Positions 6,727-64,000 of a stretch of 64,000 bases of DNA are shown here, one piece after another. Source of the DNA: Blasia pusilla (lineage: Eukaryota). The notes below the pieces were generated by a model. The model ran no database searches. It had not been told where the DNA came from and saw only the letters and a list, made by a program, of their open reading frames with translations. The first letter of the stretch is position 1. Each line of letters opens with the position of its first letter. Location: NCBI GenBank assembly GCA_050084515.1, contig CM114271.1, positions 7,254,001 through 7,318,000 of the forward strand. The letters run 5' to 3'. The translations under genes were made by a program, and so were the position numbers.

Positions 6727-6728
6727 CT

Positions 6729-7144: not shown

Positions 7145-7159
7145 CCTCAAGCTAGCACG

Positions 7160-8360: not shown

Positions 8361-8362
8361 CA

Positions 8363-15612: not shown

Positions 15613-15625
15613 CAGTTCTTTGAGT
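15613..15625 (-). promoter_or_regulatory. E2 primer-binding site, self-complementary type
   Basis: Minus strand ACTCAAAGAACTG abuts repeat X and is the exact complement of minus-strand 15799-15787 inside X. Confidence 0.75.
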
Positions 15626-18549: not shown

Positions 18550-19520
18550 TGTCAAGAAGTTTAGGTCCATCGCCTGACCCAAGACATGATATCGTGATGC
18601 CTCTGGTAGTGACACTACTACCGTCACTCCTGTGGGGAATCCCATCGCTCGCTCTCGCTCATCGACGTTGGGCTTCAACAACCTTTGTACCTGGTCATCC
18701 CAAACCAAGCCAGGTCCGACCTCCTTGAATGCATAGGAAGTGGGAAAACTCACAAATGTGGGAAAGGCTACTCGTGGCATGCCAACTTGTTGACCACAAT
18801 CAACGGCGGTCGATCATCGTGCCTCACTGCCGTCGATCACAGGTAGTGGGGCACGATGATCGACGGCCCGGATCCAATTTAGAATCCACCAACAAATCGG
18901 AGGGACGCTCCATTCTCGCATAAGCCCTCCGCAACACCTCATGTGGTACCAAGTTGGTCCACCAAAGATGCAGTTGGTGTGCTCTAGAACCTATACTTGC
19001 CGGATCTAACAACACTGTCAGGCCGATCCATGTGCGCACTTGATGTGCACTCGTCACCACGTGGGACCTAGAATCGACCAAAATTGGCACATTCTCCAAA
19101 ATGTATGCTGGAGAACAAGGCTGATGCTCTTGTAAATGTCGCAAGATCCGCATCATCTCCCAAAACAACCTAGATCGAGTGTCAGCTAACCCGCTACTTT
19201 GTGCATCACTCAATTGGCCTTGACACGGCCAACCAGCGATGACCAAGTCTATGGTTCGTACCAGCTCCAAGTCCTGCGCCCCCAACAATGAAATGTCCCT
19301 CGGTAGGAAACTCTGGTAATCCTAAATGACGGACGTAGACAACAAGTCAGGAAAACGGAGGCATAATAACGCCACATGGTGAAGTGAAGCGCGCCTCGCA
19401 ACATCATCAATCTCCACATACACGTATTGCTCCACGCGCACTCCTACGTGCAAAAATAGCTAATTTGTGCCAACCAATGCTGATCCCTCCAAAGAGATCC
19501 AACAATCGAATATCCTCCTC
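18550..19520 (-). pseudogene. E1 C5-cytosine DNA methyltransferase domain, DNMT3-like
   Basis: IRLLDLFGGISIG, IDLVIAGWPCQG, YILENVP, AHQLHLWWTNL, ERERAMGFPTGVT, VLGQAMDL. Confidence 0.9.
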
Positions 19521-19899
19521 TGGCATACACCACACAATCGGGGTGGTGTCCAAAGGGATCATAGCAACACTCTTGGCTACGTGGGATTCTTCTGACACGT
19601 CACACTCTTGTGCAAACGTCTCACTCCATGCGGTGTGCACATGCTCATTGGCTAAGCGTCGAAGCTCCTCAGTCGAGCCCCAAAGCGGCACCTCTCTTCC
19701 ACGAACTGATGCAGCTATCATGACATTCCTCTCCATAGAAATGTCAGGAACGGAAGTATCCTCTGCATGGACATGTCCCTCAATCAAATCACTAGGCCAA
19801 GTGATGGCATTGTTAAATACTGCTAAGATTGCCATCTCTCCTAGCCGTTGCTCGATCACTACACCTATGAATCGAACGGGTAATGAACTAAGGCGCCCA

Positions 19900-20363
19900 T
19901 CACTTGACTGCCATCCTGGTCTGTAGGACATTGATTCCTCCCAATAATCCACGGAAAACCCCATCGGGTATAACACTGCTTCACCAACCAAGACGTCGTA
20001 GGACTCTGCTTCAGTCACTATCGTCTCGGCTCGCACTACGGACTCATCTGTAGGATGTCCCAAGTGAATCCTCATCACGACCTCGTGTCAGGTGATATAC
20101 TGTGTGGTACTTGCTCCACCCAAGGATGTCTGTATCCGGAATGGATAATGCTCCACATCGGCTCTCGTCAAGCCCAATCCTTTGAATGACTCTTTCCCCA
20201 ACATCAAAGGTTGCGCTCCTGAATCCAACAAGACGCGCTGCGGACTAAAAGCTCTACCTTCTGGACTCACCAAGTGAAAGACCTCTCCCCAATTATCCAG
20301 AAATACAATACCAGGAGAAGCCATGGCACACTCTATTGCGGGTCTAGCAGGCATCTCCGCCAT
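19900..20363 (-). pseudogene. E1 aspartic protease region
   Basis: RVLLDSGAQPLMLG ... YDVLVG. Confidence 0.7.
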
Positions 20364-32532: not shown

Positions 32533-32669
32533 TGAATTCTAATAACCAGGTCCCATGGAAGATAGTTTTTGTGATGGATGTGACTTATAATGGCCAGTCC
32601 CATGGAAGATTGTTTTTGTGATGGGTGTGAATTCTAATGACCAGGTCCCATGGAAGATTCTTTTGTGAT
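32533..32669. repeat. Tandem repeat, ~48-bp unit x ~2.9
   Basis: Core CAG(G)TCCCATGGAAGAT..TTTTGTGAT in units starting 32533, 32581 and 32628. Confidence 0.85.
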
Positions 32670-35525: not shown

Positions 35526-36377
35526 TTATCGAGCAGAGGGCTTTCTGAATCCAACGATGTGGCTTGGCACCATGTAAGCGGGAACAGACTCGGACAAAGT
35601 AACCGATTCCATGCCAACCTCCCAGAGCTTCTCAGCATACTCCGGCCCATGGAAGAGATCCCATATGAGGGCCTGTCCTCCGGGCTTCAAAACTCTGACG
35701 ATCTCTAGAATCCCCTTGAACCTCTCCTTGCCAGCTCTGGGGGTCGCACGACCGTGGTTCTCTCCCAGGTTGTTCAAGCACAGGGCAGACACCACGGCCG
35801 CGAAATAATCGTCAGTGAACGGAAGATTGCGCGCATCTCCACTCTTGCAGGTCACATACTCTTGCGTGCCCTCGAGGGAGCTGGTCTTGAGAGTGGCGGC
35901 CATGCTTCTGCCTCTGCTCTCACCGTTCAGCCATAGATCTACGCCTACAACGCGGCCGCCCACTCCTTCCTTCTTCAATCTCAAAGCCACCGTGTTCAGC
36001 AACAAACCCCTCCCGCAACCCACGTCTAGAACCGAATCCAACTTGGCCCAATCCTCCACCATGCCCACCATGCGACGAGCAATCCTGTCACGCAAGATCA
36101 CGTTGGTGTACAGAATGTTCGCAGCCGTGACCACGAAACAAACAGCCATCAGAGCCATCACTCCCATCATGAATCCCAGCGCAAAACCCCATATCTGCGA
36201 TGGAACAAACAGGAATGTGGTAGACAAGGTCCTCGTGCACAACGAGAAGTAGAGATACAGCAGCTCCGTCGCCGCTCCCAGCGCCACCGCCTGCCATATC
36301 AACCCCGCCACATGCCCCGCTTCGTGCACTCCGTAAATCTCATACACCCTCATCCATCCTCTGCTCCCCTTCACCAT
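35526..36377 (-). CDS. Class I SAM-dependent methyltransferase with N-terminal hydrophobic segments (single exon; start may be the second Met, MRVYEIY)
   Basis: 283-aa ORF; VLDVGCGRGLL motif I, VVGVDLW, GDARNLPFTDDYF, EIVRVLKPGG. Confidence 0.9.
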   Translation of the reverse strand: MVKGSRGWMRVYEIYGVHEAGHVAGLIWQAVALGAATELLYLYFSLCTRTLSTTFLFVPSQIWGFALGFMMGVMALMAVCFVVTAANILYTNVILRDRIARRMVGMVEDWAKLDSVLDVGCGRGLLLNTVALRLKKEGVGGRVVGVDLWLNGESRGRSMAATLKTSSLEGTQEYVTCKSGDARNLPFTDDYFAAVVSALCLNNLGENHGRATPRAGKERFKGILEIVRVLKPGGQALIWDLFHGPEYAEKLWEVGMESVTLSESVPAYMVPSHIVGFRKPSAR

Positions 36378-39300
36378 ACTTCCCGAATTACAATCTTCCG
36401 ATCACCAAGAGCCGACCAGACTGCAGCAATCCGCCGCGGAACACCCAATCTTCCTCCCGACTTTCTCTTTCACCCCTCCCCCTTCGAATGGATCTCCCGA
36501 TCCAACTCCCAATCCGCACAGCAACCAACTCCGTGGCCAGCGACTACTGCCAAGAACGCCTCCCAACTTCCACCCTGGCCCCGCCGAACCGCGATATGCA
36601 GAAACAATCGTGCAGAACGTCATTCCCAATTCAAAACAGAAAGCCTCGCACCTGGAGCCATCCCACCTCGCTCCCTTCCCGCTCCTTCGTCCGTCATCCA
36701 GCTCTAGCAATCCGCGGGAAACAAACGGCTACATCCATCCGACCAGCAAACATCGCCTCCTCAACCAGCATCCGGTGCTCCTGGAGCGCCCGCCCGACAT
36801 CGTCGGTCCCATAAACTCAATGGAAAGGCGCTCAAGCGATGAGGGCGACGCGCTCACTGACCTGGAGGAAAGGGCGGGAGGAGGAGCACCTCAACGGCAA
36901 ATCTCGCAGGATTCGGATTGATGCTGTTCGTTCGTTCGTTTATTCCTTCATTTATTTTATGGTGTACTTCTCGGCACAACAGCTCAATATCTTGAGGCAC
37001 ACGTGCTCCGCTCGACGTTCTAATCCGATCACATCCTTCTCCCTTTAGCTCGGTCTCCAGGTTCACACACAGAGACGGACAATCGCTCTCGATCGACCTC
37101 GCACCACTGCAGCTGCTACTACCACTGCTGCTGCTGTTGTTGTTATGTGCTTTGGGGCCTCCCCCACGTCGACTCATCTCCCGAGTCCCTACTTCCCCGG
37201 CGGTTGCGTCATCCATCCAAAATCGATGGTTTCGCGCTCCCTGCGGACCGGGTGGGCCGGCTGCAGTCAGCAACTCCCGTCGTCGTCGTTCCCTCTTCTA
37301 TTCGGAGTCCACGCCAAGGTGATGTCTTGATGGTCGCCGGTGTTTCTTCCAGCCTTCCAGGTATATAAACCAGTCAGACCGTGGATAGATAGAATCCAAG
37401 CGCCCACGAACATCCACACACGCGTGCCGGGTATTCTTGGGCAACTTGGATGAATGGGTGGACACGTCATCTACTACTACCACCGCCACCACCGGGATGT
37501 ATGGATGGCATCTCCTAGACTCACTCATATCATATGGTAGTAAGGGTGGTAATAATCCACTTTTATTATGCTCTCTTATCCACCTCGTCCGAGAAAAAGG
37601 CAATAAAATGGTGTAAAATACACTACGACTAATTCAATCCATCACGAGATGAATAGTTTGAAATAAATTTGACGTAAATTTGCATTACACATCAGGGGAA
37701 AGAAAAGATTACGAAAAGGGGGAGTTGATAATTATGGAGGGAATAGTGTTGATATATTTTCAGGAAAGTATAAAAAATTCATGTAAATCATCAAAAACTT
37801 TAGTTACAAAAAGGATAAAGTCTCATTGCATAACTTAATTCTTTCATTCTTGTTGTTACATCTTTGTATATGCAACTTGACAAACCAAATTAGGATAGGT
37901 AGGATTAGAAAATTCTATACTTTTCAATACGTGAAAGCCATTAGATCAATTTGTCGACCAGAGGTTACTTGTACTATGATGTAGGAAATGAAGTTGCTCT
38001 TGCCCAACCATGTATTCTAATGCACAAGCCATTGATGCTAGTGCGTCTCTCATCACACAATGGCATGTCGTTCGTTCTACACGATATGCACACCGGATCA
38101 TGTACATAACCTTTGCAATAATGGGGTCACGTTCAACACAATTAAGCACACCTAAAAGAGAGTGATAGTGATATCCATGACATAACCATAGTATCTCTGA
38201 TTATATATAATCAAATGGAAGAATAAGAGGATTCACATTAGGCAATGCCGCCATTCTTATAACCTCATATGAACGCAGACTACCTCGATTAGCTCATCAA
38301 TCTTCAACCTTGGTATTTGGGATTTCCGACTTTGTGACAAGATTCATGATTCATATTGTGTTTTCAGATTCATTATGATCCACATAATTCTAATTAGATC
38401 TCTTCATGAACTAGACATAGAATTACTTTTTGGAATATTGAGAATATATCTTTAATATATATGAACCTTTCAAAATATCTATACTCCTTTCCTAAAGTAT
38501 CCCTCATGGACCATGGTTGTAAGAATAATATCATTAGGAAGGAATAGTGAATGTGCTTATAAGGACCCTAAAAAGTTTCTCATACGGACTACTTCTTAAG
38601 CATAGATTTTAAGATATTTATTGAGAGATCCCACACATCTCAAGCTATCTTTAAAATTAAAAAAAACATACAACTAATTACAAAAGAACCTTTGAACTAT
38701 GTTATATTCATAGGAGATTTTTATATTCTTTTAAAAAGTTCCTTCTTACAATTGTCAAGTCATGTACACATGAGCAAAGAGTATCTCCTTGGCGCTCGTG
38801 TAGAGATAATGTGTCTATGTTGGTAGGTCGAGGATGACCCATTGAGGAGGTGGGAAATGAGACTATGCAAGTTCCCCCATCCTGCTTTAGCTCATTTTGG
38901 ATTATTCGAGGGAAATTCTTATTTCTAAAGTTCCCGTTCGAAACCAAAACAAAATTTTCTCATGGTGATACAAGAGAAAATTCTATGATGTGAGGGTGTG
39001 GTGGCACACCAAATTATCATAGACCTTTGTTTACATGTTTGAGTGTGTATGATTTTCATGACAAAATTTGATTTTTGAACTTGTTACATTGTGATAATAA
39101 TGTATTAGAGGGTTTAAGATCTTCAAATTTTAAAAGGTATGTGTTCCTCATTTCCTTTCTTCATTTAATTGTCTCTTTTTAATTGATTTTTTTCTTTTTA
39201 AGGGACACGTGTCAACACCAAAAAAATCTCTTAAAAAAAATCCAAGAGAGATAAATAGGTCTCTTCAAATCCCATCCCCATTAATTAATCAGTGTGCGGC

Positions 39301-47286: not shown

Positions 47287-48341
47287 CCTCCTTTTACTTC
47301 CCGATTGTGTGCTCTCTGCTTCCTCTTCCACAACCCCACAGTTCTCAAACCATAGATTGAGTGAATCAAACTTGCAAATCCTCTCTCCTTCTTTACCGCT
47401 TTCGATGAGGTGTTGAATAAATTGTCGATGAGGGATTTTCGGGCCAATTCTCGTTTTGTAGTCTTTGATACGGGATTTGATGAGTCAACTGAATCGACAA
47501 GAACTCAGCGGACTTTAATTAGTCACGTTCGAGCTGATGTTGTCTACTGGACAAGCGATAATGTATGCGCGCTATTTTCTTTAATTCATGATTTATACAT
47601 GTATGAACTTTTCGTTGAGAAAGACGATTCAGTTGGTTTCGGAGAAACTGACGATGGCATTTTCGTAAATGAGAATGGTTGAAAAAAAAAAGGTTTCTTA
47701 CATTTCATGCCTCTACTTTAACGGATTTACCGGTTTTGCTTTTCCTTTCTCGTCTTAAATGTTGTGGTCACCATATTTCTCGACAAACAATGACAAGATC
47801 GGACATAAGACATCTAACCGTGAAACGCTAAGAACTCGGGGCAAAGACTCGTGCGAAGTGGAGTGAAAAGACAAGACTACCGTGGCAGTCACCTTCACTT
47901 CCTACCCTAGCAGCGAGGAGGTAAGAGCTATGATGATCACAAGCAATGACATGAAGGTTTTTGCATGCTCAATAAAAGTGGAGTCATTCACATAGTTTGG
48001 ACACAGGTTTATGCCCCCATGAGACCCTACACCCTACACAAGTGGTACTTACTATTTTTACCTAGGCAGCAAGAAAATAATTTTTTTATTATGGATAGCA
48101 GGTAAAAAGATTGAATTTGTCTTATGCATGGTATTGGATGTACACTAGTTCTTTTAAACAGTAGTAAGATATTCACTCAAAGCATGGAATGTTTGGAGAT
48201 GCATGTCATGCGCATACACATCGTTAAACAACATAGATCGCTGATCACATCCACACCACACAATACCGATCTTCCCCACACACAAGTAGATACACACATG
48301 TTCAGAAATCAACTCATACATATACATAGAGATCACACAAC

Positions 48342-48821
48342 AAAAATAGAAAGTAATAAAAACGGCACACCCGGCCTAAAACTCCACTCCTCAATCTACA
48401 TCGACATATCGAGCCTCATCCACCCTGCGCTATCAAAGAATCCGGACGTTAGCACCCTAGTCCTATCTCACACACATAAAAGAGAGGTGCTCCAACGGCC
48501 CAACATGAGAAAGATGGCGTGGGAAAGCCATCTTCCTCCCTTATATAGGGTTGGGTAGAGCCAAAAGGCTCTTCCCCTAAAAATAGCTATTCTCTTGGTA
48601 ACCTGCGCGCACAGGTTACCAAGGGTGGGTGACCTACTGAACAAGTCATCCGGCTATGAAAGACCTCAACAAGAAAGTTGTCAGAAATGATGTTCCTGAC
48701 ACAACAGACCTATCCTCAACCTCATCCGACACCGCGGGACAAAGTTACACTCAAGAAAGTCCGCTAGCTCCTATGCCCTATCCACTATAGATCTCGGCCT
48801 ATCGGTTACTCAGATGTGACA
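48342..48821 (-). repeat. E3 long repeat X (3' copy, 480 bp)
   Basis: Collinear with 56863-57342. Confidence 0.9.
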
Positions 48822-48823
48822 GC

Positions 48824-48962
48824 TGTCGTGCGCATATATATCGCTTTACAACATACATCGTTGGTCACATCCACACCACACAACACTGATCTTTCCCCAC
48901 AGACGGGTAGATTCACACATGTATAGAAATCAACTCATACATATACATGGATATCACACAAC
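48824..48962 (-). repeat. E3 short repeat Y (internal copy)
   Basis: Matches 48204-48341; followed by CGCCCCCTAG. Confidence 0.9.
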
Positions 48963-49042
48963 CGCCCCCTAGCTGGCAGTTGGATCCCCCTAACTCCAGA
49001 TAGAAAATATCACATCTCCCTTATATGACCTATTACCCTATA

Positions 49043-49180
49043 CACATCTCGGACACGTCCATCATCTCGTGGGAACTATATCAAGAAGGGGGGTCAGACA
49101 TGACATATGCCACCCCCGAGAACAACCGTCACATACCAACATGGTGGCTGCATCCGTCGCAGATCCGTACAACATACACC
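49043..49180 (-). pseudogene. E3 PHD finger
   Basis: RCMLYGS...MLVCDGCSRGWHMSCLTPLL...WTCPRC. Confidence 0.8.
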
Positions 49181-49239
49181 TCAAGCTTGTAGTTACCACT
49201 GCCAAGCTCGGATCCACTGTCCCGTCCATGTTCGGAACA

Positions 49240-52100
49240 TGACATGGTGCACAATTGCGCACATGATCCTTCCAAAGTATACCATCCCATCCCTCCAACA
49301 TGAGGACTCGGGTCTGTAATACCTCACGCACACGTAGGATCGTGTGCCCCGCATCTAGCATTGTGGGTGCCGCCTGCTCTAAATACACGTAATCTCCATG
49401 ATGAAACCTCCTAATCGTTGGACGATAACTTCCTCCACGAATGGTCGCGTACCTCAATATATCTCTATGTTTAGCAATAGCTAAGTTCTCAAAGGCCATA
49501 GGCATAACTCTACAAAAAATCCCCGCCCTCTAAGAACACGCTTGTACCCACATAGCTAGATCATCAAGATCTAACACCTCCACCATGTCACGTCGAATAG
49601 CGGCAGGTAAATCTGGCTCTCTCCCAAAGAGCAAAAAGTACGGTGAAAATGACACTAAGGATGCGTACCGACTAAAGCGATAATCCATAGCCAACCATGG
49701 CAACTGTAGGTCCCACACCCTCAATTGTCCCCGCTGCAAGCCATACTTGCACAATCCTCTCTTCATCGTCTGTACTACTCTCTCCGCCAACCCATCCGCC
49801 TCAAGATGATCTCTGGACGTGATGTGATCTATCAGCGCCTGATCACACAAGGCCTGAAACTCTCCTCTGAACTCGGTACCTTGGTGAGTCAACACCTCCG
49901 TCGGTGCACCAAAGTGACTAAGCACACAATCTAGAAACGCATAAGTTGTTCCCTCGCTCGCCTTGTCCGGTAGTGCCACCAACTCTATCCACTTTGGAGA
50001 AATGCTCCACCATGACCAACACGTATCTGTGATGACACCCCGTCAATGGCAAAGGTTCCGCAAAGTCTAAACTCCACCGATAACCTTAACCCATAATCGA
50101 AAAAGGATGTGACTACAGAGTGGAAGCATTGAAGGATGCTCACACTCTGTCGCATACCATACATTTGGCCACAAACTGCTGTACCCCAATATGAATGCCG
50201 CGCCACCAGTACTGAACCTGGAGTAAGTTGTAAGTACGCTTTACTCCAAAATGCCCCAACTCCTCATAGGCATGTCGCACTACAGGTGCTCGCTGGGAAT
50301 GATGAGGTACCACTCGTATCCTACCATCTCCCCATACCCGCAAAATATGAGTCCCCTCCCACATGAACCTCTTGGTTCTGTGTAGGATCCGATCCTGCTC
50401 CCTAGCACTTATTATGCTCGCTATGACGCCAGTGCGCAAGAACTCCACAACCTCCATGTCGTCATGGATATCACGACCACCTGTCGCCTCCTCATTGACC
50501 TCCGGATCCAAAGACTCATCATCCGATCCCACCACTGGAGTCATCACCTGTGGCTGACCTACCATAGTCAACCAACAAAGATAGGCAGATGCATGCCAAT
50601 CGGGCACCATCTCCTCATCACTCTCTCCGTGCCATCGAGCTCTTGTGTTGTCTCTCTGACTCGGATATGGGTTACGACTCAACTCATCTGCATCCTAGTT
50701 CATCCGATCTGGCCTGTGAACCATCTCAAAATCATACTCTTGTAGTAATAGAGCCTACATGGCAAGCTTTCCCGTAAGCTTTTCGGACTCCATTAACCAC
50801 CTCAACGGTTGATGATCAATAATAAGTGTGAAAGGGTTGCCAAATAAATAGCACCTGAAATGTGCCATAGCCCACACTACAACCAAGCACTCCCCCTCGT
50901 AGGAATTATACTTTGCCTTTGCAATGTTGTTCGATCGGCTCGCGTAAGCCACAACGAACTCCCTCTCCTCTTCATCCCTCTGAGTAAGCACTGCTCCTAG
51001 ACCCAACATGCTCCAATCCGTATGTAAGAAGAATCGGAGATCCCTAACTGATCTCTCTAAAATGGGTGAGAACATCAACATGTCCTTGAGCTCTTGAAAT
51101 GCTCGCTCCTGATCATCTCCCCATAACCAAACCTGATCAAGTCTCATCAACAAGGTCAAAGACTACGCGATCACACTAAAACCCTTGACATACCGTCAAT
51201 AGAAGTTCGCCAGTCCAAGAAATGCTCGGACTCGACTCACATCTGAAGCGGGTGAAATCTGCGGATAGCCTCCACCTTCGTCTACTGAACACCTAACCCA
51301 ATCAGGTATATGGTGTGTCCCAAGTACTCAATTTGCTCCTGAAAGAATCTGCACTTGCTTGAATGTAACTTCAATCCATGTAACTGCAATTTCTGAAACA
51401 CCTCATTCAAGTGTCGCTCATGCTCCTCAATCGTGGAACTGAAGATAAGAATATCATCTATGTAACATTGTATAAAATCCAAGCTAGCCAGAATCCTATC
51501 CATCACTCTCTGAAACTCCGCACGCGCGTTCTTCAACCCAAATGGTAAGAATCGCCACTGATACAAGCAATCTCTCCCAAACCAATCTATCCCCCAAAAT
51601 GTTGTCTTCTCCCTGTCCTCCAACCTGATAGGAAGCTGATTATAGCCAACACGCAGATCTAAAGTACTGAAGATGTTTACATGGCCTACCACATCAAAGA
51701 TCTCCCCAGGAGTAGGCATGGCGTACCGATCTGACCTCATTTGTCAATTGATAGGATGGTAATCTCCACACAACCGCCTATCCGTCCAATTGCCATACAT
51801 ATCCTTCTTCGCCGACATGACTATGGCAGATGCATACTCCCCATATGATAACTCCACAAGTTCTGCCTCCAACAAGTCCTAACTCCTGCTCTGAATCAAG
51901 GCTTTCTCCATATCATAATACTTGTAGGATCGACGAAAGATCAACCTATCACTAGCCAACTCAATCCGTATCTCGGGACCCTTCACCGTACCCAAATCTC
52001 TCATACTGAAGGCAAAACAACTGACATGCCCTCTTAGAAACATGTGAACTCCCCGTCGCTCTCCTCCTATCAACTTGAGATATATCACAGGCTCCCAAGT
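49240..52100 (-). pseudogene. E3 RT-RNase H-integrase (stops/frameshifts)
   Basis: YIDD, LPFGLKN, TDWSMLGLGAVL, GHFGVKRTY, EVLTHQGTEF, DGLAERVVQTMK. Confidence 0.9.
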
Positions 52101-52419
52101 CTCCATTGTGCCCTCACTCGGAGAGGATGCAACCTCCCGCTTTGGTTGCTATGTAGCAACCCTAGCCACCTCCGCAACAGCCACTCCACTCTAGCCTCCT
52201 ACACCATGCTCCACATCCAAAAAATGAACATGTGCTGCTCTTGCTGCCTTCACACTCTCCCCTCGAACGACATCCCATAAAGTCCATGGGTGCCTATCTC
52301 TCCTGTCCCACCCCCATCCAATACCTGTACAGACCCTATAGGCAATGCTCCAACTCGGGAACGTGACGGCATGGATGACACTCGCATCCGTCTCTGCTCA
52401 GCCATACCTACGCTGACTA

Positions 52420-53350
52420 TCCATGTGAGACAGTTGAGGTCCATCGCTTGCCCCAACACCTCTCTCCGGGATGCCTCAGTCATACCTGGCACACCCGTAG
52501 TACCCGTAGCGAACCCCATGGCACGCTCACGCTCATCCGCTATATGCTCCTCCAATGCTCGGATCACCTCATCCCAAATCATATGTGGCCCTCCTTGACG
52601 AGAGGCATGGGATGTTGGGAATCTCACCAACATAGGTAAAGTTGCCCTCAACTCCCCCACCCTATTGGCCATCACCAACGGTGGTCTATCATCTCGTGTC
52701 ACCACCTGAGATTGACGCCCTGAACCCAAAATAGCATCCACTGTGAGATGTGGTGCTCTCTGGACTCCATCGTATGCTCGACTCAATACCTTTGATGGTA
52801 TCAGGTTCGTCCACCACAGTCGTGGACGATGGGCGTGTGATCCAACTCTCTTTGCATCTAAGAACACAATAGGTCCCAACCAAGACCTCACCTGATGCAC
52901 ACTAGTTATCACACGTGCACGAGTATCTCCCAACAATGGCACGTTCTCCAAAATGTACGCCGAAGAACATGTCTGACTCTCCTGCAAGTGTCGTACTAGC
53001 ATCTCCCAAAATATCCCTGACCTCAGATCCTGCAATCCAAACCCTCGTCCAGCTAATGAATGACCTTGACATGGCCATCCCGGAATCACCAAATGAATGG
53101 TGCCAACTCTATCTAGATCATGCGTCCCCACCAAAGAGATGTCGGCGGGTAGTGTATGCCGAAATCCCTGTACTGTAAATACCGGCAACAACTCAGGATA
53201 CCTCTGGACCAATCTTGCCACATAACGTAATGATACTCGCCATGCGGTCTCATCTTTCTCCACATAAAGATATTAATGCACCCGTATGCCCGCCTACAAT
53301 ACTGCAGCCAATCCGGTGCTAATCCCTCCGAAGAGATCTAACACCCGAAC
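52420..53350 (-). pseudogene. E3 C5-cytosine DNA methyltransferase domain, DNMT3-like (largely one 337-aa ORF)
   Basis: LDLFGGISTG upstream; LVIPGWPCQGH, YILENVP, AHRPRLWWTNL, ERERAMGF, RREVLGQAMDL. Confidence 0.9.
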
Positions 53351-53699
53351 ACCCTCCTCTCAACACTATCACACAACACTGTGGTATCCAGTGGGGTCAA
53401 CGTCTCCACTCTAGGAGCCCGATCGCCACCTGACTCTCGCTGCTCCGAGATAAAGGCATGACTCCATGCCTGCCTCACGAGATTGTCGGCACTCTTGTGT
53501 AGCTCTTGAGTCGTATCCCACAATGGTGAAGAGGTCTCGCCAACATGGGAAGAGACACCCGCCATGGCCTGTCTCTCGGTGGGACTATCCGCTACTAGGA
53601 CATCCTCCGTATGTGCATTCCCCTCCAACCACTCTCTTGGCCAACTAAAACTACCTGTGAAAGCTACCAACGTGGTCACAGACTCGTCTCGTGCTCAAC

Positions 53700-56250
53700 C
53701 ACCTCGTCCCATAAACTGCACGGGTAAGTGACTCATCCGCCCGTCACCCGACCGCCACCCTGGCCGATAAGCAACGGTCTCCTCCCACAAGTCAAGGATG
53801 AATCTTAGGGGATATAACAATATACTCCCCACCAACTCATCGTATGACTCAGCTAGTGTCATAATCGCACGTTTGCGCACCATAGCACTATGCGTCGCAT
53901 GCTCTGGCTAGACTCTGACAACTATCTCATGTCGAGTCATATACTGCGTGGGTGACATGCCCCCAATCGAGGTCTGTATGTAGAAGGGACAAGTCTCAAT
54001 GTCGGCCTTCCATAACCCCAACGCTAAACAAGTCGCCTTCCCTAACATCAAGAGTTGCACTCCCGAATCAAGTGGGACGCGCTCTAGGTGGTATACTATC
54101 CCCGTTCGACTAACCAAGCAAAATACTCCAGATCGATTATCCCATAACACTACACCAGATGTCACCACTGCTTGCTCTATGGCCGATCGAGCTGGCATAT
54201 CTACCAAGTTTGCGACCGCCGCATGTCATGAGTCTGTGGGGGACGTTCCGAGCACCTCCTTCGAGGGCCAGTCCACCACCTCTCAACTACCTCTGAACAA
54301 GAGGCAATCACCTCTCCACGCTCACACAACGTGGCGGCCAGCCGGAACACCTCAGCTGGTCCAACTCCCAACGTCGCCAACTCTATGGCAGAACATAGCG
54401 AAGTCTGGCTTACTCTGGTGGCCACCTCCAACACTATGGTCGACACTGACTCCACTCGAGCCGGCATAGGAGTTGTCACTCCAACTTCTTGTGACGTCGA
54501 CGCACCTGCCTAACCTGTTGGCACCGCTGATCAACGAGGCACCATCGATGGTGTGTGTAGTGCCTCCCACAATGTGAATGACTTTGGAACCGTGGCCTGC
54601 CGCCCATCAGTCCCCTCTGGTAGGTCAATCTCAACTCCACCTCTCGATGGCTCAGTACCTCTCGCAACACCCCGAGTCACCACTACATCAGCCTCAACGT
54701 GAGTTGCACTACACATAAGCCCATACTAGTGAGATCCTCACCCCGGTGAGGGTAAGAGGTAGAAGTTGGAGCCACACTAGTTGCTCACGGATCCGTGCCT
54801 GCCCTGAGTTACATCATCGTGATGGCAACAATCCTCTGCTCCAACTGATCGATGCATGAGAGAAGTGTCGGCTCTGGTGCTCCTGCTCCATCTCCTCTGG
54901 CTGGTGGTGGTCCTCTACCACCACATCCAGGAACAACTCCCCGACTTCCTCCAGGATGACCACCCCCAGGCCCTCGGCCTACCTCTGGACGTGCCTCTCG
55001 ATGAAGGTCAAAACATCTATCCATAGTGTGACCATATCTGTGGCAATAGTCACACTGGTGGGGCCATCCTCTATCTGAGCAATCAGAGGCGCTCGTGGTC
55101 CTCTCCCATGTTGTGTGCAGTCTCTCTGCCTATGGGCTCCTCCACACATCCAACAAGACAACATCGGTCCCTGTTGGGCAACATATGTAGATACGGGTTG
55201 TTGCCTCATAGGCTCACAGTACCCGCCCTGCTCTCTGGGCACACTGGCCCACTCCCGTGGTACTGGTGCTCGGTGTGGCACGTGTAGGGTCACCGTCACT
55301 TGTGGACCCGTCAACTCTCGAGAAAATCCAGCAGTCACTACCTCCTCATCAATCATGTTGAGCTGAATATGCTCAGACAACTCGAAGATCACCTCCAATG
55401 TGGGCCTTGCTGTGTGAATCAGTACCGCATCTCGGACTCTCCTCCATAGTTCTCGGTCCAAAACCACGAACCAATTGACTGACTTCGCCTCAATCACTCC
55501 ATACGTAGCAATGATCAGCCTCCTCATGCGCGTAAATGCCTCTCTCTGACTCTCACGTGATCGTTGCTGAAAATCATATAGACTCTTCAGCTTGTCGGTG
55601 CGTATGCCCTAGTAGCTCTTCCCCAACTATGGGAAGAACTCCACTATAGGACTGAAGATGGGTGGCCCTCTACCACCAAAGGTCTCTGCCACATCGCCTG
55701 TCTCACTACCCTCCTTTCCATCTAGTCTCTGGGCTGATGGTGTGGGTCTCTCTCCCCTCATGATCCCATCATATGCCTCGCAACCACTAGTGGACACATA
55801 CTCTGGAGCCCAATACATCCTCCAAGCATCAATCTTTAGTGAAAAGAGCGATCAAAACTCCATGTAGTTATCCATCGGAGGACCCTCCAAGTGCTGCAAC
55901 AATCCCTTCAATGCCATGAAAGGGTTGAACCGTGTCAGGGTCCGTATCTCTTGGAAGTTGCACCACGTGTCGAACTCCTGGATAAAATCATATAAGTCCA
56001 TGGTGCCCTCTACACCCGAGAAACAACACATGCCCCAATGGCCCATGTCGTACATCTCTTGCCAAGTTACATTGCCTCCGTCTGCGATCACGTCACCAGA
56101 CCTGGTGTCTAGTGATGACAATTTAGCCAAGGATAGATGTCGAGGTAGCTCCTCACTGGTAATCCTCAGTATCTCACATCCACTCCATGTCACACCACTA
56201 CTACTGCTCGCACTACCCCGTTCTTCCAAACCCTGGAAGAACACCGTGAT
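53700..56250 (-). pseudogene. E3 gag and protease regions (decayed)
   Basis: LYDFIQEFDTWC, CWMCGGAHRQRDC knuckle, VPLDSGVQ. Confidence 0.7.
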
Positions 56251-56848
56251 GACAACCCGGTCTCACCCGCTCAAGTACTCAAACTCACCAAGAGTCTCCC
56301 ACACTCCTCAGTAGCTCACCCACGCTAATGGCAATCCCGTGACGACATACTCCGCCTCACGCACACTCAACACTTGGGCTCACCATGAGCCTCCCAACTA
56401 ACTCACCTAAAGCACAGATACTCTCAAGTCATACACGTGACCCCTACTCGGCAACCGCCGTATATCCACATACATGCCACAGGGAGGGGCCTAAATGCAT
56501 GGCCCTTGGCCCTATAAGGCCTCCCCAGCCCTAAATGCGCGGGGGAGAAGAGTCGCGACGGCTCGGCTTCCCGGCCTCTGCCCTAACCCTAACCCTAGAC
56601 CTAGCCCTAATCTCTAGCCGCCTTTACTTAACAGCCCCACAGTGGCTGCAAGGCCAAGCTCTCCTTTCCCTCTATCTCGTCACTCATGGTCGGCAGCACA
56701 CTCGTGAACTCCCGCCCTTTCATGCCTTGCTACACTCAGGTGCTCTCTCTCAAAAATCTGCACATGTGAAATCTACAAAACAACGAACAACGCTTCTGCC
56801 CACGGCCTTCCAAACACTACAAACAACGAATTCCCACCAACCCCTTGA

Positions 56849-56862
56849 CATCTTTCTCATGT
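56849..56862 (-). promoter_or_regulatory. E3 primer-binding site, self-complementary type
   Basis: Minus strand ACATGAGAAAGATG abuts X and is the exact complement of minus-strand 57037-57024. Confidence 0.75.
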
Positions 56863-57342
56863 AAAAATAAAGAGTAGTAAAAATGACACACCCAGCCTAA
56901 AACTCCACTCCTCAATCTACATCGACATATCGAGCCTCATCCACCCTGCGCTATCAAAGAATCCGGATGCTAGCACCCTAGTCCTATCTCACACACATAC
57001 AAGAGAGGTGCTCCAACGGCCCAACATGAGAAAGATGGCTTTGGAAAGGCATCTCCCTCCCTTATATAGGGTTGGGAAGAGCCAAAAGGCTCTTCCCCTA
57101 AAGATAGCTATCCTCATGGTAACCTGCGCACACAGGTTATCAAAGGCGAGTGACCTGCTCAAGAAGTCACCTAACTGTGAAAGACCTCAACAAGAAAGTT
57201 TTTAGAAACAACATTCCTGACACAACGGACATATCCTCAACCTCATCCAACACCGCGGGACAAAGTTACGCTCAAGAAAGTCCGTTGGCTCCTATGCCCT
57301 ATCCACGATAGATCTCGGCCTATCGGCTACTCAAATATGACA
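56863..57342 (-). repeat. E3 long repeat X (5' copy, carries promoter)
   Basis: Matches 48342-48821; TATATAA on minus strand at 57068-57062. Confidence 0.9.
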
Positions 57343-57819
57343 TGCAATGCCCGTGTGTGCAACCCTTCTTGTGGCGATCATGATGTGCCTTAAGTCAAAA
57401 ATATGTGGGCACAAGTAGGAAGCTTTTGTTGGTCAGAATTTTCAAGTGTCGATATATGAAGCAATCAGCATGAAATGGGTATCTCTCATAATAATATAAA
57501 TTATATAGTTGCATAAGAAATCCCTGAGGGGTAGAGTACATCCGATAGCCCCTATTCAAAATGCTAACAAGGACTGGAAACCTAAACTCAACTCCCTACT
57601 CCTCAAGATTTAGAATTCAAAGTCTAACATGTTGTCTTGCTTGGCATGTTCAAGCTTAAGAAGTATGATATATTTTGAGACCCATCTTGAGATACTAGCT
57701 GTTCTTCTAGGAACTAGAAGGAGATTATATAAGGGTTGATAGATTAGCCAACCAAGGGAGTTACAACTTTAAGCAAGGCATTAATTTTCAAATTTGGTAT
57801 TTCGCTCGTATTATAATTT

Positions 57820-57876
<57 letters not shown>
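57820..57876. repeat. Compound (AT)n(AG)n microsatellite
   Basis: Directly visible. Confidence 0.95.
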
Positions 57877-57878
<2 letters not shown>

Positions 57879-59653
57879 CGTTCCCGAAGAGGACTAAATT
57901 ATCATTAAATTCTTCCAATTCAACCAACAAGGATCCTCTCACTAGTTCTTCAAGTACAGACATCTTCACTTAGAACAAATTATATTCGCATGTTCAATCT
58001 TCTCTTTGGAGTCATCAAATACTTCTTAAAACACTCTCTCAAGTGAGATAAGGTCTCGACAAGGAAAATGGGATTTAAGAATGACCTTGCAAATTCTATG
58101 ATGCTTTCTTGCTATAATAACTTAATCTATACTGTAGTTACTCTCTGTCAAACTGATTCCTAACACCACACACAAAGTACGACACCTCTCTTAAGCCCTC
58201 TATAAGCGGCATACTCATGCATCTCCAATCAAATCAAGATCATCAACTCCACATGCATAACATAACAATGTAGAAATTTTATTCATCCATCAAGAGGTCA
58301 AGAAGTCCTTGAATATGCACACATCCCAACCCCTTCTAGTTGTGGCCAAGTCACTCTTATTGTGTCCCTACCCAAGACTAAGTCAAATAAACTACCTTTA
58401 CTACTTTCGTGTCCTACTTTTACACTACTCTTCCTCATCTCTCACGCGTGCTTCCACCAAGTTCTCATTCATCTTAGTCTACCTAGGCTACTCATCAAAT
58501 CCTCTAGCAACCTAAATCAGTCGTCTTACGGTCACCCTACTTAGTGATCCCTAATCATTACGGACTATATATGCTACCTCTACAGTTCTACATCTCCAAC
58601 ATTGTCGTTGATACATGTCTTTTACTACCTTTGTTTACTACTCTTACTAACTTATGTCTTCGCGGAAATTCCTCTTAAAGAGTCCTTGTCGAAGATTCTC
58701 ACTCTTTGTAGTATATATGTTGCACAATCCTCATAAAGATTGCACCAAGTCCTCTTCTTTCCTCCCTATTCTCAAGAAGAATCCTTGCTATGAGAGGCTC
58801 TTAGTCTTTGTCTTTGTATTTTGGTTCCTTACTCTTCACACGTCTTTGCAAAGACCCAAAATAATATTCATTTTGACCTCTTCTCTTGAGATCCTTTGAA
58901 CAATCGTTGCCAAGATTTCCTCCATTATCCATCACAAAGATCCTCAACAACAATGATAACCACTAGTCCTTTTCTACCATTCTAAAGAGTTCTTCACCAC
59001 AATCTCCTTACAACTAAGGTTCCAAGCATTTAGCTTTACATTCTCACTATCTTTGACTCAAATAAACAACAAAATTAGTATCACCAACCAAATATAGTCA
59101 CCACAACTCATTAGATTGAGAATTGTGATACCAATCGTCCCCTACAAAACTTGATAGGACTGCCCCTAGTTCATTCTTGTCAAGCCAACTCAAATCTTCC
59201 ACTTCACATGGCTTGGTATGCAAGATTAGTCATGGATCAACAATGAGATTAGAATTAGACTCTATATCCCTCTAAAGGAGTACATCTATTTTAAAATAAG
59301 ATTTGAAGGATGCATTTTGAAACATAAGACTTCACAAAGAAAATGACATCTATTCATAAACAATTTTTAATTCCAAAATATATATATTTGGTCCCTTGTT
59401 AATTCCTCCATCTTTGGCCTTCAATACATAGGGTATGTGATTGGAAAAGTGGTAAGAGGAGGCTAAGTCCCCTAATTCCTACTTTGAATGGAAAGTTTGA
59501 TCTATTTGGTTTTCAATTTATCAAATGTTGACTAGATCTTAAATGCAAAAGTTCCAATATAGTAAGATTGCTTTCTATCTAGCCTTAATAATACAAACAT
59601 GCCAAAAATAGTAGTTTTTTAAATTGATATTGTATCACTAATACTTATATGGT

Positions 59654-62600
59654 TGTCGTGCGCATACACATCACTACACAACATACATCGCTATCATCGA
59701 ACACACCCACGATCCCATGCTAACTCATGACATCCATACAGAGAGGCAAGAAGTACAAAATATCTCCAATAAAGTAAGATCCAATCTCTCTACACCATCT
59801 CACACCATAGCTCTTAAAGGTGTGCACTCTCTTAATGAAAGGCTTGGGTTACACTCACAAGGAAAGGGACCATAGCTCCGCCGCCTCATGCCAAGAGGTT
59901 CAACAAAGAGAGAATGAGCTCTCAAGCTCTCTCTCCTTGAGGTATACCCCCTTCCCTCTCCCAAGCCCTCTCAACGATAACCTATGCTCGCAGGTCACCT
60001 CCTTCGCTCTTGACCAGCTGTAGCGGGTCAAGGGCCACTTCCCAAAGTGTAAATTCAACTATCCCCAACATGGAAACTTACACAACATAGTAAGTTTCTC
60101 TATATGGCTCCAAATGAGCTGAAACGAAGGGGAAACCTGCTCTCTCAGGTTTCCTGGGGCCTGAACAAGTCATCCTCGACCTCCTGGGCCTGTCCTTCAC
60201 TACTCGTGCAGACACTCTCCTAGATCCCACCGATCTATCCTAACAGTCGTGAGAGCTGTCGTGCGCATACACATCGCTACACAACAAACATCGTTGTCAT
60301 CGAACACACACCCAAACACACACGATCCCATGCTAACTCATGGCATCCATACACAGAGGCAAGAAGTACCAAATTATCTCCAATCGCCCCCCTAGCTGGT
60401 GGTTAGGTCCTTGTAACTCCAGATAGCCATCTATCCTTACCTACCACGACATACACCTCTAGGACGCTAAGAGCAGAAAGGTCGGGATATTCATGTGACC
60501 CCATCATTAGTCGACTTCTTATCATCCATGTCACGGAAAAAGTCATAATCGAAACCTACCTAGCATCTCCTCTATGTCCATCAGGGGCACACCCATCATC
60601 CCCGAGGAACCCTAGTGAGAGGTGGCATCAGACATGCCATATGCCAACCTCTCGAACATCCATCACAGACTAGCATCGTGGCCACACCACGAGCAGAACC
60701 ACACAACATACAACGCAAGCCTGCAGGAACTACTGTTGAGCTCGGATCTACTGTACCATCAATGTTAGGAAGGTGACATGGCGCATAATTACGCACATGG
60801 TCCTACCATACCATACCATCGCATAACTCCAGCAAGAGAACACCGGATGGCAAAATGTCAGGTACTCTCAGAATAGTGCGCCCTGCAATCACATCCAACG
60901 TCGTCGGTGCCGTCTGCTGCAAGTAGACATAATCTCCTTGATGAAACCTCGGGATAGTAGGTCGATAACCACCACCCCGAATAGTCGCATACCTCAACGT
61001 CTCTCGATGTTGCGCAATCGCCAAGTTCTCAAACGCCATGGGCATCACTCTCCAAAACAACGCAACCCCCTAAGAACATGCTCGCATCTATACATTTGGG
61101 TCATCAAGGTCCAGCACCTCACCAGCATCTCGACGAATGGCCGTAGGTAAATTTGGCTCTCGGCCATAAAGTAGCAAGTACGATGAAAAAGATGCAAAGG
61201 ATGCCTGCCTGCTGAATCTATATCCCATTGCCAACCATGGCAATTGGAGGTCCCAATTTCCTAGGTGATCTCTCTGCAAGCCATACTTGCGTAAACCCCT
61301 CTTCACCGTCTGCACAACTCTCTCCGCTAATCCATCCGCCTCCGGATGATCTCGCGAAGTCGTGCGGTGGTTGATCAGCGCCTGATCACACAAGGCCTCG
61401 AACTCACCGTGAAACTCGATACCTTAGTCTGTCAACGTCTCTGCCGGTGCACCATAATGACTAAGCACTCTGTCAAGGAAGGAATAAGCTACTCCCTCAC
61501 TCGCTTTGTCAGGAAATGCAACCAACTCAATCCACTTCGAGAAGTGCTCGACCATCACCAACACATAGAACGACTGTGACGCTCCGTAAAAGGAAAAGGT
61601 CCTGCAAAATCCAAACTCCATCTATACCATAAGCCCATAATCGATAATGGATGCAACTGTGGAGTCGAAGCAGTGAATGATGCTCACACCCGATCACACA
61701 CCATGCACCTGGCAACAAACTGTTGAACGTCAATTTGCATGCCTCGTCACCAATACTGAATCTAGAGCAAGCAGTACGTTCGCTTCAACCCAAAGTGACC
61801 CAACTCCTCATGGGCATGTTGCATTAGTCGTGCTCTCTGCAAAGGATGCGGCACTATGCGTACTCTACCATCCTCCCAAACCCTTAAGACATGTGTCCCC
61901 TCCCAACGGAACCGTCTCGCCCGCTGTAGGATCCGATCCCACAATCCAGCACCCACGGTGCTTGCAACCTCACTCGCAACGCTGCCAATACGAAGGTACT
62001 CCAAGACTACTCCATCATCATGAATATCTCGGCCACCTGTCGTCTCCTCACCGGCCTTGGGATACAAGGACTCTCCACTAGACTTCGCCATCAAAGTCTC
62101 CACAGTCTGGCTCTCTATAGCCAACATGCCTAAATAGGCTGAAACGTGCCATCCTCGCACTGACTCCTCATCACTCTCTCCATGCCATCGAGCTCTAGTC
62201 GCATCTCACTGACTCTGGCATGGGTTACGACTCAACCCATCTGCATCCTGGTTGAGCATCCCAAGTCTACGTACCACCTAAAAATCATACTCTTGCAACA
62301 CCAAAGCCCATCTCGCAAGCTTCCTTGTAAGCTTGTCGGACTACATCAACCACTTCAGTGGTTGATAATCAGTGGTGATGGTAAAGGGGTTGCCGAATAA
62401 GTAACACCTAAAATGCACGATAGCCCACACTGTAGCCAAGCACTCGCCCTCATACGAGTTGTACTTCACCTCTACAGCGTTGTTCGAGCGGCTAGCGTAA
62501 GCCACCATGAACTTTCTACCCTCATCATCATGTTGGGTGAGCACTGCTCCAAGCCCCAACATGCTCCAATCTGTGAGCAACTGGAAAGGACGCCCCCTGA

Positions 62601-64000
62601 TCGATCTCCTCAAGATGGGCGCGGACATCAACCTGTCTCTGAGCAACTGAAATGCTCGCTCGTGCTCATCCCCCTAGTGCCACTCGTGATCCACCTTGGT
62701 CAGTAAGGTTAAAGGCTTCGCAATCAAACTGAATCCCTTGACGTACCGCTGATAGAAGTTTGCCAATCCCATGAATGCGCGAACACGGCTTAGATCTGTA
62801 GGGCATGGAATGCGTGATATAGCCTCTACCTTTGTCTGCTGAACATCAAGGCCACCTGGGTATATTGTATGATCCAAGTACTCAATCTGGTCGTAGAAGA
62901 ACTTGCACTTGCCTGGATGTAGCTTCAGCCCATGTAATTGCAATCGTCGAAATACCTCCTCTAGATGTCACTCATGCTGCTCAACCGTGGCACTAAAGAC
63001 TACGATGTCATCAATATTACACCTAGCAAAATTCAGACCATCCAAGATCTTATCCATGACCCTTTGAAATTCAGTCGGGGCATACTTTAAACCAAATGGT
63101 AAGAACGCCACCAGTACAAACAATCCTTCCTGTGAGGATCGATGCCCCAAAATGCCGTCTTCTACCTGTCATCCAATCTGATAGGTAGTTGATGGTATCT
63201 GGCTCGCAAATCCAATGAATTGAAGACCTTTGCGTGACCAATCGCATCAAAGATCTCCTCACGGGTGGGCATGGCATACCTATCGGACTTCGTCTGTCGA
63301 TTGATAGGTCGGTAATCCCCACTTATCCGTCCAATTGCCATCCACATCCTTCTTGGCGGGCATGACAATGGCAGATGCATACTCCCCATGCGACATCTCC
63401 ACTAGTTCTGCTCTGACCAAGTCTTGGCTCCTACTCTGAATCAGAGCCCTCTCCATATCACTGTACTTTTGGCGTACTTGCAAATCATCCCAAGAAGTCC
63501 AAGGGTATCTCTCCCGATCACCCCTGGTGTATCAATCTGCTCGGGTCTCGCCCCTAGCCACTGCCTCAACTATCTCGATAAGCATGGGGCTCACCAACGC
63601 AACAACTATGATGTGTCGTATCCTCAAAAGACGTTGCTCAGCTTCTCCTAAGCTAAAAATCCATGTCAAGCAGTTCACGTCCATTGGCTAACCCAAAACA
63701 TGACGTCGTGATGCCTTCGATAGTGACGATACTATCGTCACTCCTGTGGGGAATCCCATCTCTTGCTCTCGCTCATAGGCGTTCGGCTCCACCAACCTCT
63801 GTACCTGGTCATACCAAACCAAGCCAGGTCCGGCCTCCTTGAATGCAGAGAAAGCGGTCGAACTCACCAATGTGGGAAAGGCGGCTTGTGGCATGCTAAT
63901 CATGTTGACCATAGTCAACGGCGGTTGATCATCGTGCCTCACTCCCTATGATCAACGGCCTGGATCTAATATAGAATCTACCAACAAATCAGAGGGATGC
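59654..64000 (-). mobile_element. E4: same family as E1, runs off the window end
   Basis: Y 59654-59770, X 59771-60254, GC, Y 60257-60384, PPT-like tract; PHD ~60575-60716, IN, RH, RT, and DNMT C-terminal part (EREQEMGFPTGVT...RRHVLG) 63660-64000; X and Y resemble those of E1. Confidence 0.9.

Follow-up and report, generated by a model that had tools for sequence, protein, structure and literature searches.

A 64,000-nucleotide stretch of the Blasia pusilla genome (assembly GCA_050084515.1, contig CM114271.1, positions 7,254,001 to 7,318,000; hereafter the window) holds four retrotransposon copies, E1 to E4, in which a Gypsy-type polyprotein with a DDE integrase is combined with split direct repeats. 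The complete copy E3 occupies 48204-57342 on the minus strand and reads, in sense, TGCA|X1-coding-Y1-GC-X2-Y2|TGCA: one copy of a repeat X at the 5′ end, the other enclosed between two copies of a repeat Y at the 3′ end, and a 4-bp target-site duplication outside both. We propose that these elements are Ty3/Gypsy-type long terminal repeat (LTR) retrotransposons whose LTR has the form Y-nn-X (nn being two bases), whose integrase sites lie inside that LTR, and whose integrated copy is permuted; to the whole five-step chain set out below we assign a probability of roughly 0.6. The proposal draws on the positions of the element termini and their duplications, on the sequences that adjoin X1 and Y1, and on the heterogeneity of the X2|Y2 joint.

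The layout of E3 was obtained by self-BLAST of the window, a repeat finder and reading of the minus strand. X1, the sole 5′ repeat (56863-57342, beginning TGTCAT), and X2 (48342-48821) are 480 bp long and 90.4% identical, and Y1 (48824-48962) and Y2 (48204-48341) are about 139 bp long and 85.6% identical. Y2 is joined directly to the end of X2, and its final ...ATGACA forms the 3′ terminus of the element. Between Y1 and X2 lie only the two bases GC (48822-48823), at the centre of the palindrome ACA-GC-TGT in which both element ends abut. TGCA precedes X1 in sense (57343-57346) and recurs after Y2 (48200-48203). An earlier sequence-only reading of this DNA had described X-ORFs-Y-nn-X-Y elements (ORFs, open reading frames) and had placed one of them at 48200-57346. 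For E3 that description is exact to the base, nn being literally 2 bases and the span being E3 plus both 4-bp duplications, and self-BLAST bears out the repeat layout of E2 as well as E3. The same reading had seen the 3′ arrangement Y-nn-X-Y in E1 and E4 and had counted three families, not a one-off rearrangement; E1 and E4 do read so, and the three X families in the window are joined by 13 further independent copies elsewhere.

Element termini take the form TGTCA(T/C)...(A/G)(C/T)GACA. Nine complete copies of the long form, X1-coding-Y1-nn-X2-Y2, were available, two in the window and seven in metagenome contigs (loci with L numbers). Perfect 4-bp duplications flank eight of them (E2, E3, L002, L035, L053, L068, L075 and L078), and the duplication of the ninth, L052, matches at 3 of 4 bases. 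They flank the start of X1 and the end of Y2, not the end of X2. The TG..CA ends and 4-bp duplications (CTTC, TGCA) noted previously are thereby seen again, as TGTCA...GACA ends with duplications read in both E2 and E3. Where the two ends abut inside a copy, exactly two bases always separate ACA from TGT (17 of 17), and the motif is a perfect palindrome in E3, L035 and L062. At the predicted cDNA ends, namely the start of Y and the end of X, neither TG nor CA is conserved. Because the termini abut as ACA-nn-TGT and the cDNA ends lack a conserved TG or CA, the integrase sites appear to lie inside the LTR. Copies with two ordinary LTRs, which would have told against the split-repeat description, were also looked for; a conventional complete pair occurs at 0 of 30 3′ ends and 0 of 15 5′ ends.

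Apart from the window copies, these counts come from metagenome contigs that were pattern-scanned with an alignment of reverse transcriptase (RT), RNase H and integrase, the best 80 of 508 confirmed loci being kept. Among the 43 loci that reach 7 kb, self-BLAST picked out seven in which a long-range repeat surrounds the RT match; every one has the form X1-coding-Y1-nn-X2-Y2, and the RTs of these complete copies are 83% to 48% identical to the window RT. The metagenome families are A, which resembles E2, and B. For a census of 3′ ends, the 80 loci were probed with X and Y of both families. Removed from it were duplicates (L051 and L059, equal to L052; L074, equal to L075; L073, equal to L072; L036, equal to L035; and L043, probably equal to L041), contigs cut at their ends (L043, L054 and L067) and four oddities: L037, with Y cut at 58 nt; L010, with the 3′ half of X followed by Y; L039, with a lone Y on the other strand; and L038. 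In L038, an inverted partial X directly follows Y-nn-X and Y2 is missing (3244-3878), which may represent a head-to-head insertion or a rearrangement.

After this clean-up, the 80 loci yielded 13 long-form and 13 Y-only 3′ ends. With the four of the window, all of them long (4/4), the long form makes up 17 of 30 3′ ends and the X-coding-Y form 13 of 30. Y-only copies end ...GACA|flank. Two of them are complete, have perfect 4-bp duplications and lack X2-Y2 (L009, 3201-12899, ATTA; L028, 4259-12893, TACA), and eleven more 3′ ends are of the same kind. At the other end, 15 of 15 distinct 5′ ends read flank|X-primer site, and X|Y-nn-X occurs at 0 of 15. X1/X2 and Y1/Y2 identities track each other copy by copy, as expected if both pairs arose in one event, and the X1/X2 identity of 86-95% over the copies implies that all of them are old. 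A scan of IMG/VR returned 60 loci. One is a 4.9-kb contig at 39% identity; the other 59, of 7-10 kb and at 27-32%, are taken, judged by size and identity alone, as probable caulimovirus-like genomes.

X1 and X2 alone resemble a normal LTR pair, and an ordinary Gypsy element with X as its LTR could be imagined if the extra Y were a tandem duplication, the result of a solo X nested in Y, or an assembly error. This explanation is already contradicted and is highly improbable. Y2 stands directly after X2 in 17 independent copies belonging to at least four families, and the duplications lie at the start of X1 and the end of Y2 instead of at the end of X2. X lacks a CA end in most families, and the conserved terminal motif sits at the end of Y. 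Furthermore, a Y "duplication" of 105-180 bp is no integrase footprint, and the polypurine tract lies 105-180 nt from X2. An ordinary element altered by secondary rearrangement is excluded both because the layout recurs and because of where the duplications stand.

The sequences at the two borders of the coding region indicate which unit reverse transcription would make. In E2, E3, L035, L053 and L078, the 12-16 nt directly after X1 are the exact reverse complement of a segment of X that begins 29-33 nt past a TATA-like box, the exact complements being 12, 14, 16, 12 and 12 nt long, respectively; in a shuffle test, 0 of 5000 shuffles reached these lengths in any of the five, as did 0 of 2000 in an additional test of E3. 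The TATA box of E3 (TATATAA, X position 275) lies at about 57062-57068 on the minus strand, and its spacing predicts a transcript start at about 57037. The complementary 14-nt segment of X1 (X positions 306-319; 57024-57037) starts 31 nt past the box and is the proposed RNA 5′ end and self-primer. Its partner, the primer-binding site recognised by sequence reading, complementarity and folding, adjoins the X1 end directly (56849-56862). Across 15 independent 5′ ends, the first 12 nt after X1 pair with X1 at the homologous position, 30-33 nt past a TATA-like box, exactly in 5, with one mismatch in 3 and with two mismatches in 4, so that complementarity with at most 2 mismatches in 12 nt is present in 12 of 15. 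The paired sequences are wholly different among three families (CTCAAAGAACT..., ACATGAGAAAGATG and TCTAGAAAAACT) and complementarity is nonetheless kept, a pattern that, read from the sequences, is covariation. When the predicted R-U5 RNA is folded to minimum energy, its 5′ end pairs with the primer site (z -2.7 and -4.6); the folded stretches were chosen to begin on, or immediately beside, the base that opens the complementary segment, and the folds are thus not independent evidence. A tRNA-type primer site was considered and rejected: a TGG lies 23 nt after X1 in E2 and E3, L035 and L053 do not conserve it, and priming there would leave a 23-nt stretch absent from X2. The complement after X1 fits the signature of Tf1-type self-priming, given a transcript start that is only predicted from the TATA spacing.

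On the other side of the coding region, 28 of 30 copies have a G-run immediately before Y1, with at least 8 G in family B; in E3, it is the polypurine-tract-like AGGGGGCG at 48963-48970, next to the start of Y1. Since this is the usual place of a polypurine tract, plus-strand synthesis would be expected to start there. In the standard two-jump scheme of reverse transcription, the primer site and the polypurine tract fix the LTR. With a primer site after X1 and a polypurine tract before Y1, the cDNA should carry Y-nn-X at both ends, and the LTR made by reverse transcription would be Y-nn-X, not X. The sequence-only reading had spoken of split repeats instead of two LTRs. The layout stands, but the opposition to LTRs does not, for the primer sites point to Y-nn-X as the LTR and to the integrated copy as a permutation of a two-LTR element.

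The Y1-nn-X2 spacing is constant among the copies, whereas the X2|Y2 joint varies. Among nine family B copies, the joint is precise in four (L052, L053, L068 and L071), has one extra nucleotide in L062 and L080, lacks two in L075, and is the site of large deletions in L063, where X2 is reduced to its first 77 nt, and in L078, where Y2 is reduced to its last 29 nt; both of these deletions have one edge at the joint. The five family A copies show three joint forms, one common to E2, L041 and L035 (with a base change in L035), a second in L029, which keeps three more Y bases and has lost two X bases, and a third in L002, where a 17-nt filler partly repeats the end of X. Taking the two families together, 7 of 14 copies carry a private indel, a filler or a deletion placed exactly at the X|Y joint. 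Other indels in the family B alignment are common to subfamilies or lie within a microsatellite. The variable joint beside a constant Y1-nn-X2 spacing suggests that the joint may be made anew in each cycle. Under the Y-nn-X scheme, the joint would not be copied to progeny and each insertion should make its own, an expectation that the data fit.

Three further observations concern Y ends and joints. In family B, a 10-nt motif is repeated at the end of Y; in L071 (about 10145-10175), Y2 stops 15 nt short, at the upstream one of these copies, which reflects either use of the inner motif copy by the integrase or a slippage deletion. Four sequencing runs were aligned, all as contigs, with the RNA status of three runs guessed. 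In a single contig of a DNA run, the start of Y is joined through 7 other letters to an X without its last 40 nt, possibly a further joint variant. In two contigs from runs guessed to be RNA, X continues into 64 nt of Y in one, and X2 passes through Y2 into a different flank in the other.

The last two contigs fit transcripts that contain Y2 and so bear on the main rival, a DIRS/Ngaro-style cycle operated by a DDE integrase. RNA would then run from within X1 to Y2, Y1-nn-X2 would act as a bridge template that restores the missing ends and links them into a circle, and the integrase would open this circle at Y-nn-X, the joint being copied from the RNA and inherited. The repeat layout is indeed that of PAT and Ngaro elements, and most joints are precise. 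Nonetheless, three covarying families have a self-primer site at X1 and a polypurine tract at Y1; these features are characteristic of LTR-type reverse transcription and define Y-nn-X as the LTR. A joint that is inherited sits poorly with indels, fillers and deletions placed exactly there in half of 14 copies from two families. A symmetric circle also predicts the other permutation, for which the count is 0 of 15 5′ ends, and the transcripts that would favour such a cycle come from runs whose RNA status is a guess. We consider a DIRS-style cycle quite unlikely.

The same joint variants raise another alternative, in which the element has the permuted LTR and host end-joining alone makes the joint, producing a covalent two-LTR circle that the integrase then opens. 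Fillers, microhomology-type losses and resection-like deletions at the joint resemble end-joining products, and end-joining explains fillers and resections equally well; two-LTR circles and circles of plant retrotransposons are well known. A closed circle, however, has two identical ACA-nn-TGT junctions, and the X|Y-nn-X-coding-Y copies predicted from the second are represented by 0 of 15 5′ ends, as against 17 long-form 3′ ends. Their absence is not decisive, as the mirror form might collapse fast by X/X recombination. A circle made solely by end-joining is unlikely on this balance, though it deserves to be kept in view. Random opening of a closed two-LTR circle was rejected, since it predicts the X|Y-nn-X 5′ ends that are missing from the same 15.

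The five-step chain that we favour for the Y-nn-X LTR would proceed as follows. RNA would start about 30 nt past the TATA box within X, and its first 12-16 nt would fold back on the primer site after X1, in Tf1-like self-priming; the plus strand would be primed at the G-run polypurine tract before Y1. This first step, self-primed LTR-type reverse transcription, would produce (Y-nn-X)-coding-(Y-nn-X), in which the integrase recognition ends would sit back to back inside each LTR as ...GACA-nn-TGTCA.... The copy that would keep all information for the next cycle is X-coding-Y-nn-X|Y, a permutation of the two-LTR cDNA. In the second step, the right cDNA end (the end of X) would be joined to the left (the start of Y). 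We slightly favour a route in which the plus strand runs off the end of X onto the minus-strand 3′ end. It would require only 105-180 nt of extra synthesis and would leave the bottom strand with just a nick at the joint, and this small requirement would account for the mirror permutation not being seen. Alternatively, host end-joining would yield a two-LTR circle. In the third step, the integrase would cut the left-hand ACA-nn-TGT on both strands at CA; a staggered cut would leave recessed CA-3′OH ends with 2-nt 5′ overhangs, which is the form of processed retroviral ends. Insertion of X-coding-Y-nn-X|Y with a 4-bp duplication would be the fourth step. In the fifth, use of the first Y end instead would give X-coding-Y copies, which should be dead on arrival because they lack a 3′ R region. 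In this chain, the anatomy, the positions of the primer site and polypurine tract, the duplications and the variability of the joint are read from the sequences; where transcription starts, how the ends are joined, how the junction is cleaved and how the short form arises are inferred. The origin of the short form could equally be direct integration at the first Y end, later recombination between Y1 and Y2, or assembly collapse.

Several points weigh against this chain. Primer complementarity is lacking in 3 of the 15 5′ ends (L002, L007 and L028). All copies seen are degenerate, and the transcript start, the cDNA intermediate and the insertion step are predicted from them. Variation at the joint could have arisen by mutation after insertion, the site being T-rich and prone to slippage, or could mark subfamilies. 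Recombination between Y1 and Y2 may be all that is needed to explain the X-coding-Y copies, and X|Y-nn-X-coding-Y copies could have collapsed to X-coding-Y by X/X recombination, which weakens the argument from asymmetry. The metagenome contigs are short-read assemblies, in which collapsed or chimeric repeats may occur; the X-coding-Y form and the two large deletions at the joint are the most exposed to this. Finally, end processing by retroviral integrases is poor where CA lies far from the terminus, and internal cutting would be a new demand on the enzyme.

The encoded proteins place the elements with Gypsy. In E2, E3 and L053, the last a metagenome copy and the best-preserved relative, the sense-strand domain order by Pfam is a weak aspartic protease (a weak gag-asp_proteas match), C5 DNA methyltransferase (DNMT), RT, RNase H, H2C2, rve and PHD. 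The DNMT domain PF00145 was found in E3 and L053. On the minus strand of E3, the DNMT ORF fragment lies at 52253-53272 (E 1.8e-6), followed by an RT plus RNase H stretch at 50758-51743, with the RT fragment at 51285-51743 (PF00078, 1.6e-29) and the RNase H fragment at 50758-51162 (PF17919 and PF17917, 1e-27 to 1e-29). The integrase (49065-50694) comprises an H2C2 zinc finger at 50143-50694 (PF17921, 7.4e-13), a DDE core at 49533-50042 (PF00665, 5.4e-5) and a C-terminal PHD finger at 49065-49529 (PF00628, 6.2e-5). Its reading frame is interrupted by stops and frameshifts, as is every copy seen. The L053 integrase matches PF17921 at 6e-9 and PF00665 at 1.1e-12, and its core aligns with Ty3 Gag-Pol (7q5b, 2.6e-10) and with the PFV integrase (3e-6), as a whole-core match. 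The L053 PHD finger (PF00628, 2.9e-10) has the WSTF PHD as its best solved-structure match (1.4e-13). This finger occupies the integrase C-terminus in place of a chromodomain.

The sequence-only reading had named a Gypsy-type H2C2 and DDE integrase and had seen no tyrosine recombinase. Both statements hold, the first through the H2C2 and rve hits and the core alignments to Ty3 and PFV. As to the second, a Pfam search that covered phage_integrase domains gave no tyrosine recombinase match among 25 E3 ORFs (every one of the 19 sense ORFs that reach 70 aa, plus 6 antisense ORFs, one of them partly in the flank), among 14 sense ORFs of E2, or among 10 of the 12 L053 ORFs listed at 90 aa or more; PF00589 is likewise present in 0 of 120 protein relatives listed. 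Among the protein matches listed, the closest to the window RT are from Calypogeia fissa (80%) and Marchantia polymorpha (82-83%, with a DNMT domain), and the next are from Klebsormidium, Closterium, Chara and chlorophytes, a ranking that by itself would probably assign the window to a liverwort. K. nitens proteins with RT, RNase H and integrase domains are 48-55% identical to the window RT, and one of them, P0071, also has DNMT. The relatives listed include annotated Gypsy-type polyproteins, as similarity matches.

E2, the second complete copy and a member of a second family, was delimited by self-BLAST and strand reading at 6254-15992 on the minus strand. Its X1 (15625-15992) and X2 (6359-6726) are 368 bp long and 94.9% identical, and its Y1 (6729-6835) and Y2 (6254-6358) are 105 bp long and 97.1% identical. 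The spacer is AG (6727-6728), the primer site lies at 15613-15624, and the target-site duplication (6250-6253 and 15993-15996) is GAAG in sense, or CTTC on the plus strand. E2 is nested within the integrase region of E1, which resumes at 15997 with matches to E3 and E4, CTTC standing on both sides. By the same means, the 3′ part of E1 was read on the minus strand as Y1-AC-X2-Y2 of a third family at 4488-5246 (Y1, 5119-5246; nn, 5117-5118; X2, 4600-5116; Y2, 4488-4599). E4, of the same family, has its minus-strand 3′ part Y1-GC-X2-Y2 at 59654-60384 (Y1, 60257-60384; nn, 60255-60256; X2, 59771-60254; Y2, 59654-59770), the rest lying beyond the window end. With the X of E1 as a probe across the window, no 5′ end of E1 was found. 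The X sequences of E2, E3 and E1/E4 give zero cross-matches between them and thus define three families. Each window element has exactly two copies of Y, and the likeness of Y between families is limited to its last 40-60 nt (80-87%).

The E1 X probe has one weak match at 38823-38924 on the opposite strand (73% over 107 nt), which may be an old fragment of another copy. Just beyond the 3′ end of E1, the stretch 2001-4500 is very AT-rich (GC 0.245) and contains direct repeats (2554-2674 with 4308-4436; 3723-4001 with 4128-4430). All four elements are on the minus strand, and GC skew is steadily about -0.2 to -0.3 over 4001-22000 and 48001-64000, which implies that the sense strand is richer in G than in C. 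Between the elements, a 291-aa open frame at 35529-36401 (minus strand) matches Methyltransf_11, a SAM-dependent methyltransferase domain, at 8.7e-12 and is probably a host gene. A tandem repeat with a 47-bp unit in 2.9 copies occupies 32533-32669.

In the textbook classification, split direct repeats go with tyrosine recombinases and two full LTRs with DDE integrases. The window elements resemble PAT, Ngaro and TOC1 in having the order A-coding-B-A-B, with a B-A junction in which the two element ends abut, implying a joined-end intermediate. In contrast to those elements, they have a DDE integrase, TG...CA ends, 4-bp duplications, a Gypsy-type pol order and no tyrosine recombinase, and their self-primer site and polypurine tract are placed as in LTR elements. 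DIRS, Ngaro and PAT elements are not known to make target-site duplications on integration. A second comparison is with the retroviral two-LTR circle of the old circle-precursor model, whose junction lies between LTRs with a 4-nt spacer and which is a dead end. Both have a palindromic CA-spacer-TG where the att ends abut, and in both a staggered cut would give processed ends; in the window elements, however, the junction lies inside each LTR, has a 2-nt spacer and is inherited, and the LTR-LTR joint (X|Y) would stay uncut. The third comparison is with Tf1-type self-priming. The Tf1/sushi and Tcn1 groups are similar in lacking a tRNA-type primer site, in the complementarity of the post-U5 sequence to the predicted transcript start, and in carrying a chromatin reader at the integrase C-terminus, but these groups, as far as the sections of the source covered describe them, have two ordinary LTRs and a chromodomain where the window elements have permuted repeats, a PHD finger and DNMT. 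The covered sections of the plant reference survey predict self-priming for the plant Tcn1 clade and TAR and make no mention of Marchantia, Klebsormidium, PHD or methyltransferase (Neumann et al. 2019, PMC6317226).

The sequence-only reading knew of no described group that combines these features; the view that none has been described is not supported. KnitGypsy-Dnmt3 of Klebsormidium nitens is already in print, with DIRS-type repeats and Gypsy domains given in the legend of Fig. 4c (de Mendoza et al. 2018, PMC5890265); the SymbioDIRS legend of the same paper defines the DIRS arrangement as A-coding-B-A-B. Like the window elements, KnitGypsy-Dnmt3 has a Gypsy-type pol, its polyprotein includes a Dnmt3-like C5 methyltransferase, and its repeats have a layout "the same as that of a DIRS retrotransposon" (PMC5890265). 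It differs in its green algal host, and the published main text gives no duplications, primer sites, junction anatomy or mechanism; in that main text, the combination is a single earlier sentence. A literature search, with supplementary files outside its coverage, found only this description, and the covered parts of PMC11982613 and PMC8557442 hold nothing on the layout. The window elements are new members of the kind first noted in Klebsormidium. New here are the evidence for a reverse-transcribed LTR out of register with the integrated termini, the self-primer, the variable joint and the short form.

We see an even chance that a green-lineage Gypsy clade has both integrase ends at one internal LTR site, remakes the joint by RT run-on or end-joining, and uses its DDE integrase in a transposase-like manner; this would constitute a third integration route for LTR retroelements, with a layout convergent with that of tyrosine-recombinase elements and dead X-coding-Y by-products. 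The textbook link between repeat layout and enzyme is broken across a clade, in at least four families in bryophyte-type sequences and in the Klebsormidium family. LTR-finding pipelines will misplace the boundaries of such elements, or overlook them, if they require two LTRs bordered on the outside by duplications, and they will misdate them where Y is ignored. If the mechanism is true, a retroviral-type integrase can use an internal junction as its substrate, which bears on the long-standing question of whether joined-LTR forms may serve as integration precursors. The combination of DNMT and a PHD reader as cargo gives liverwort models a reason to look at where these elements are targeted and how they affect host methylation.

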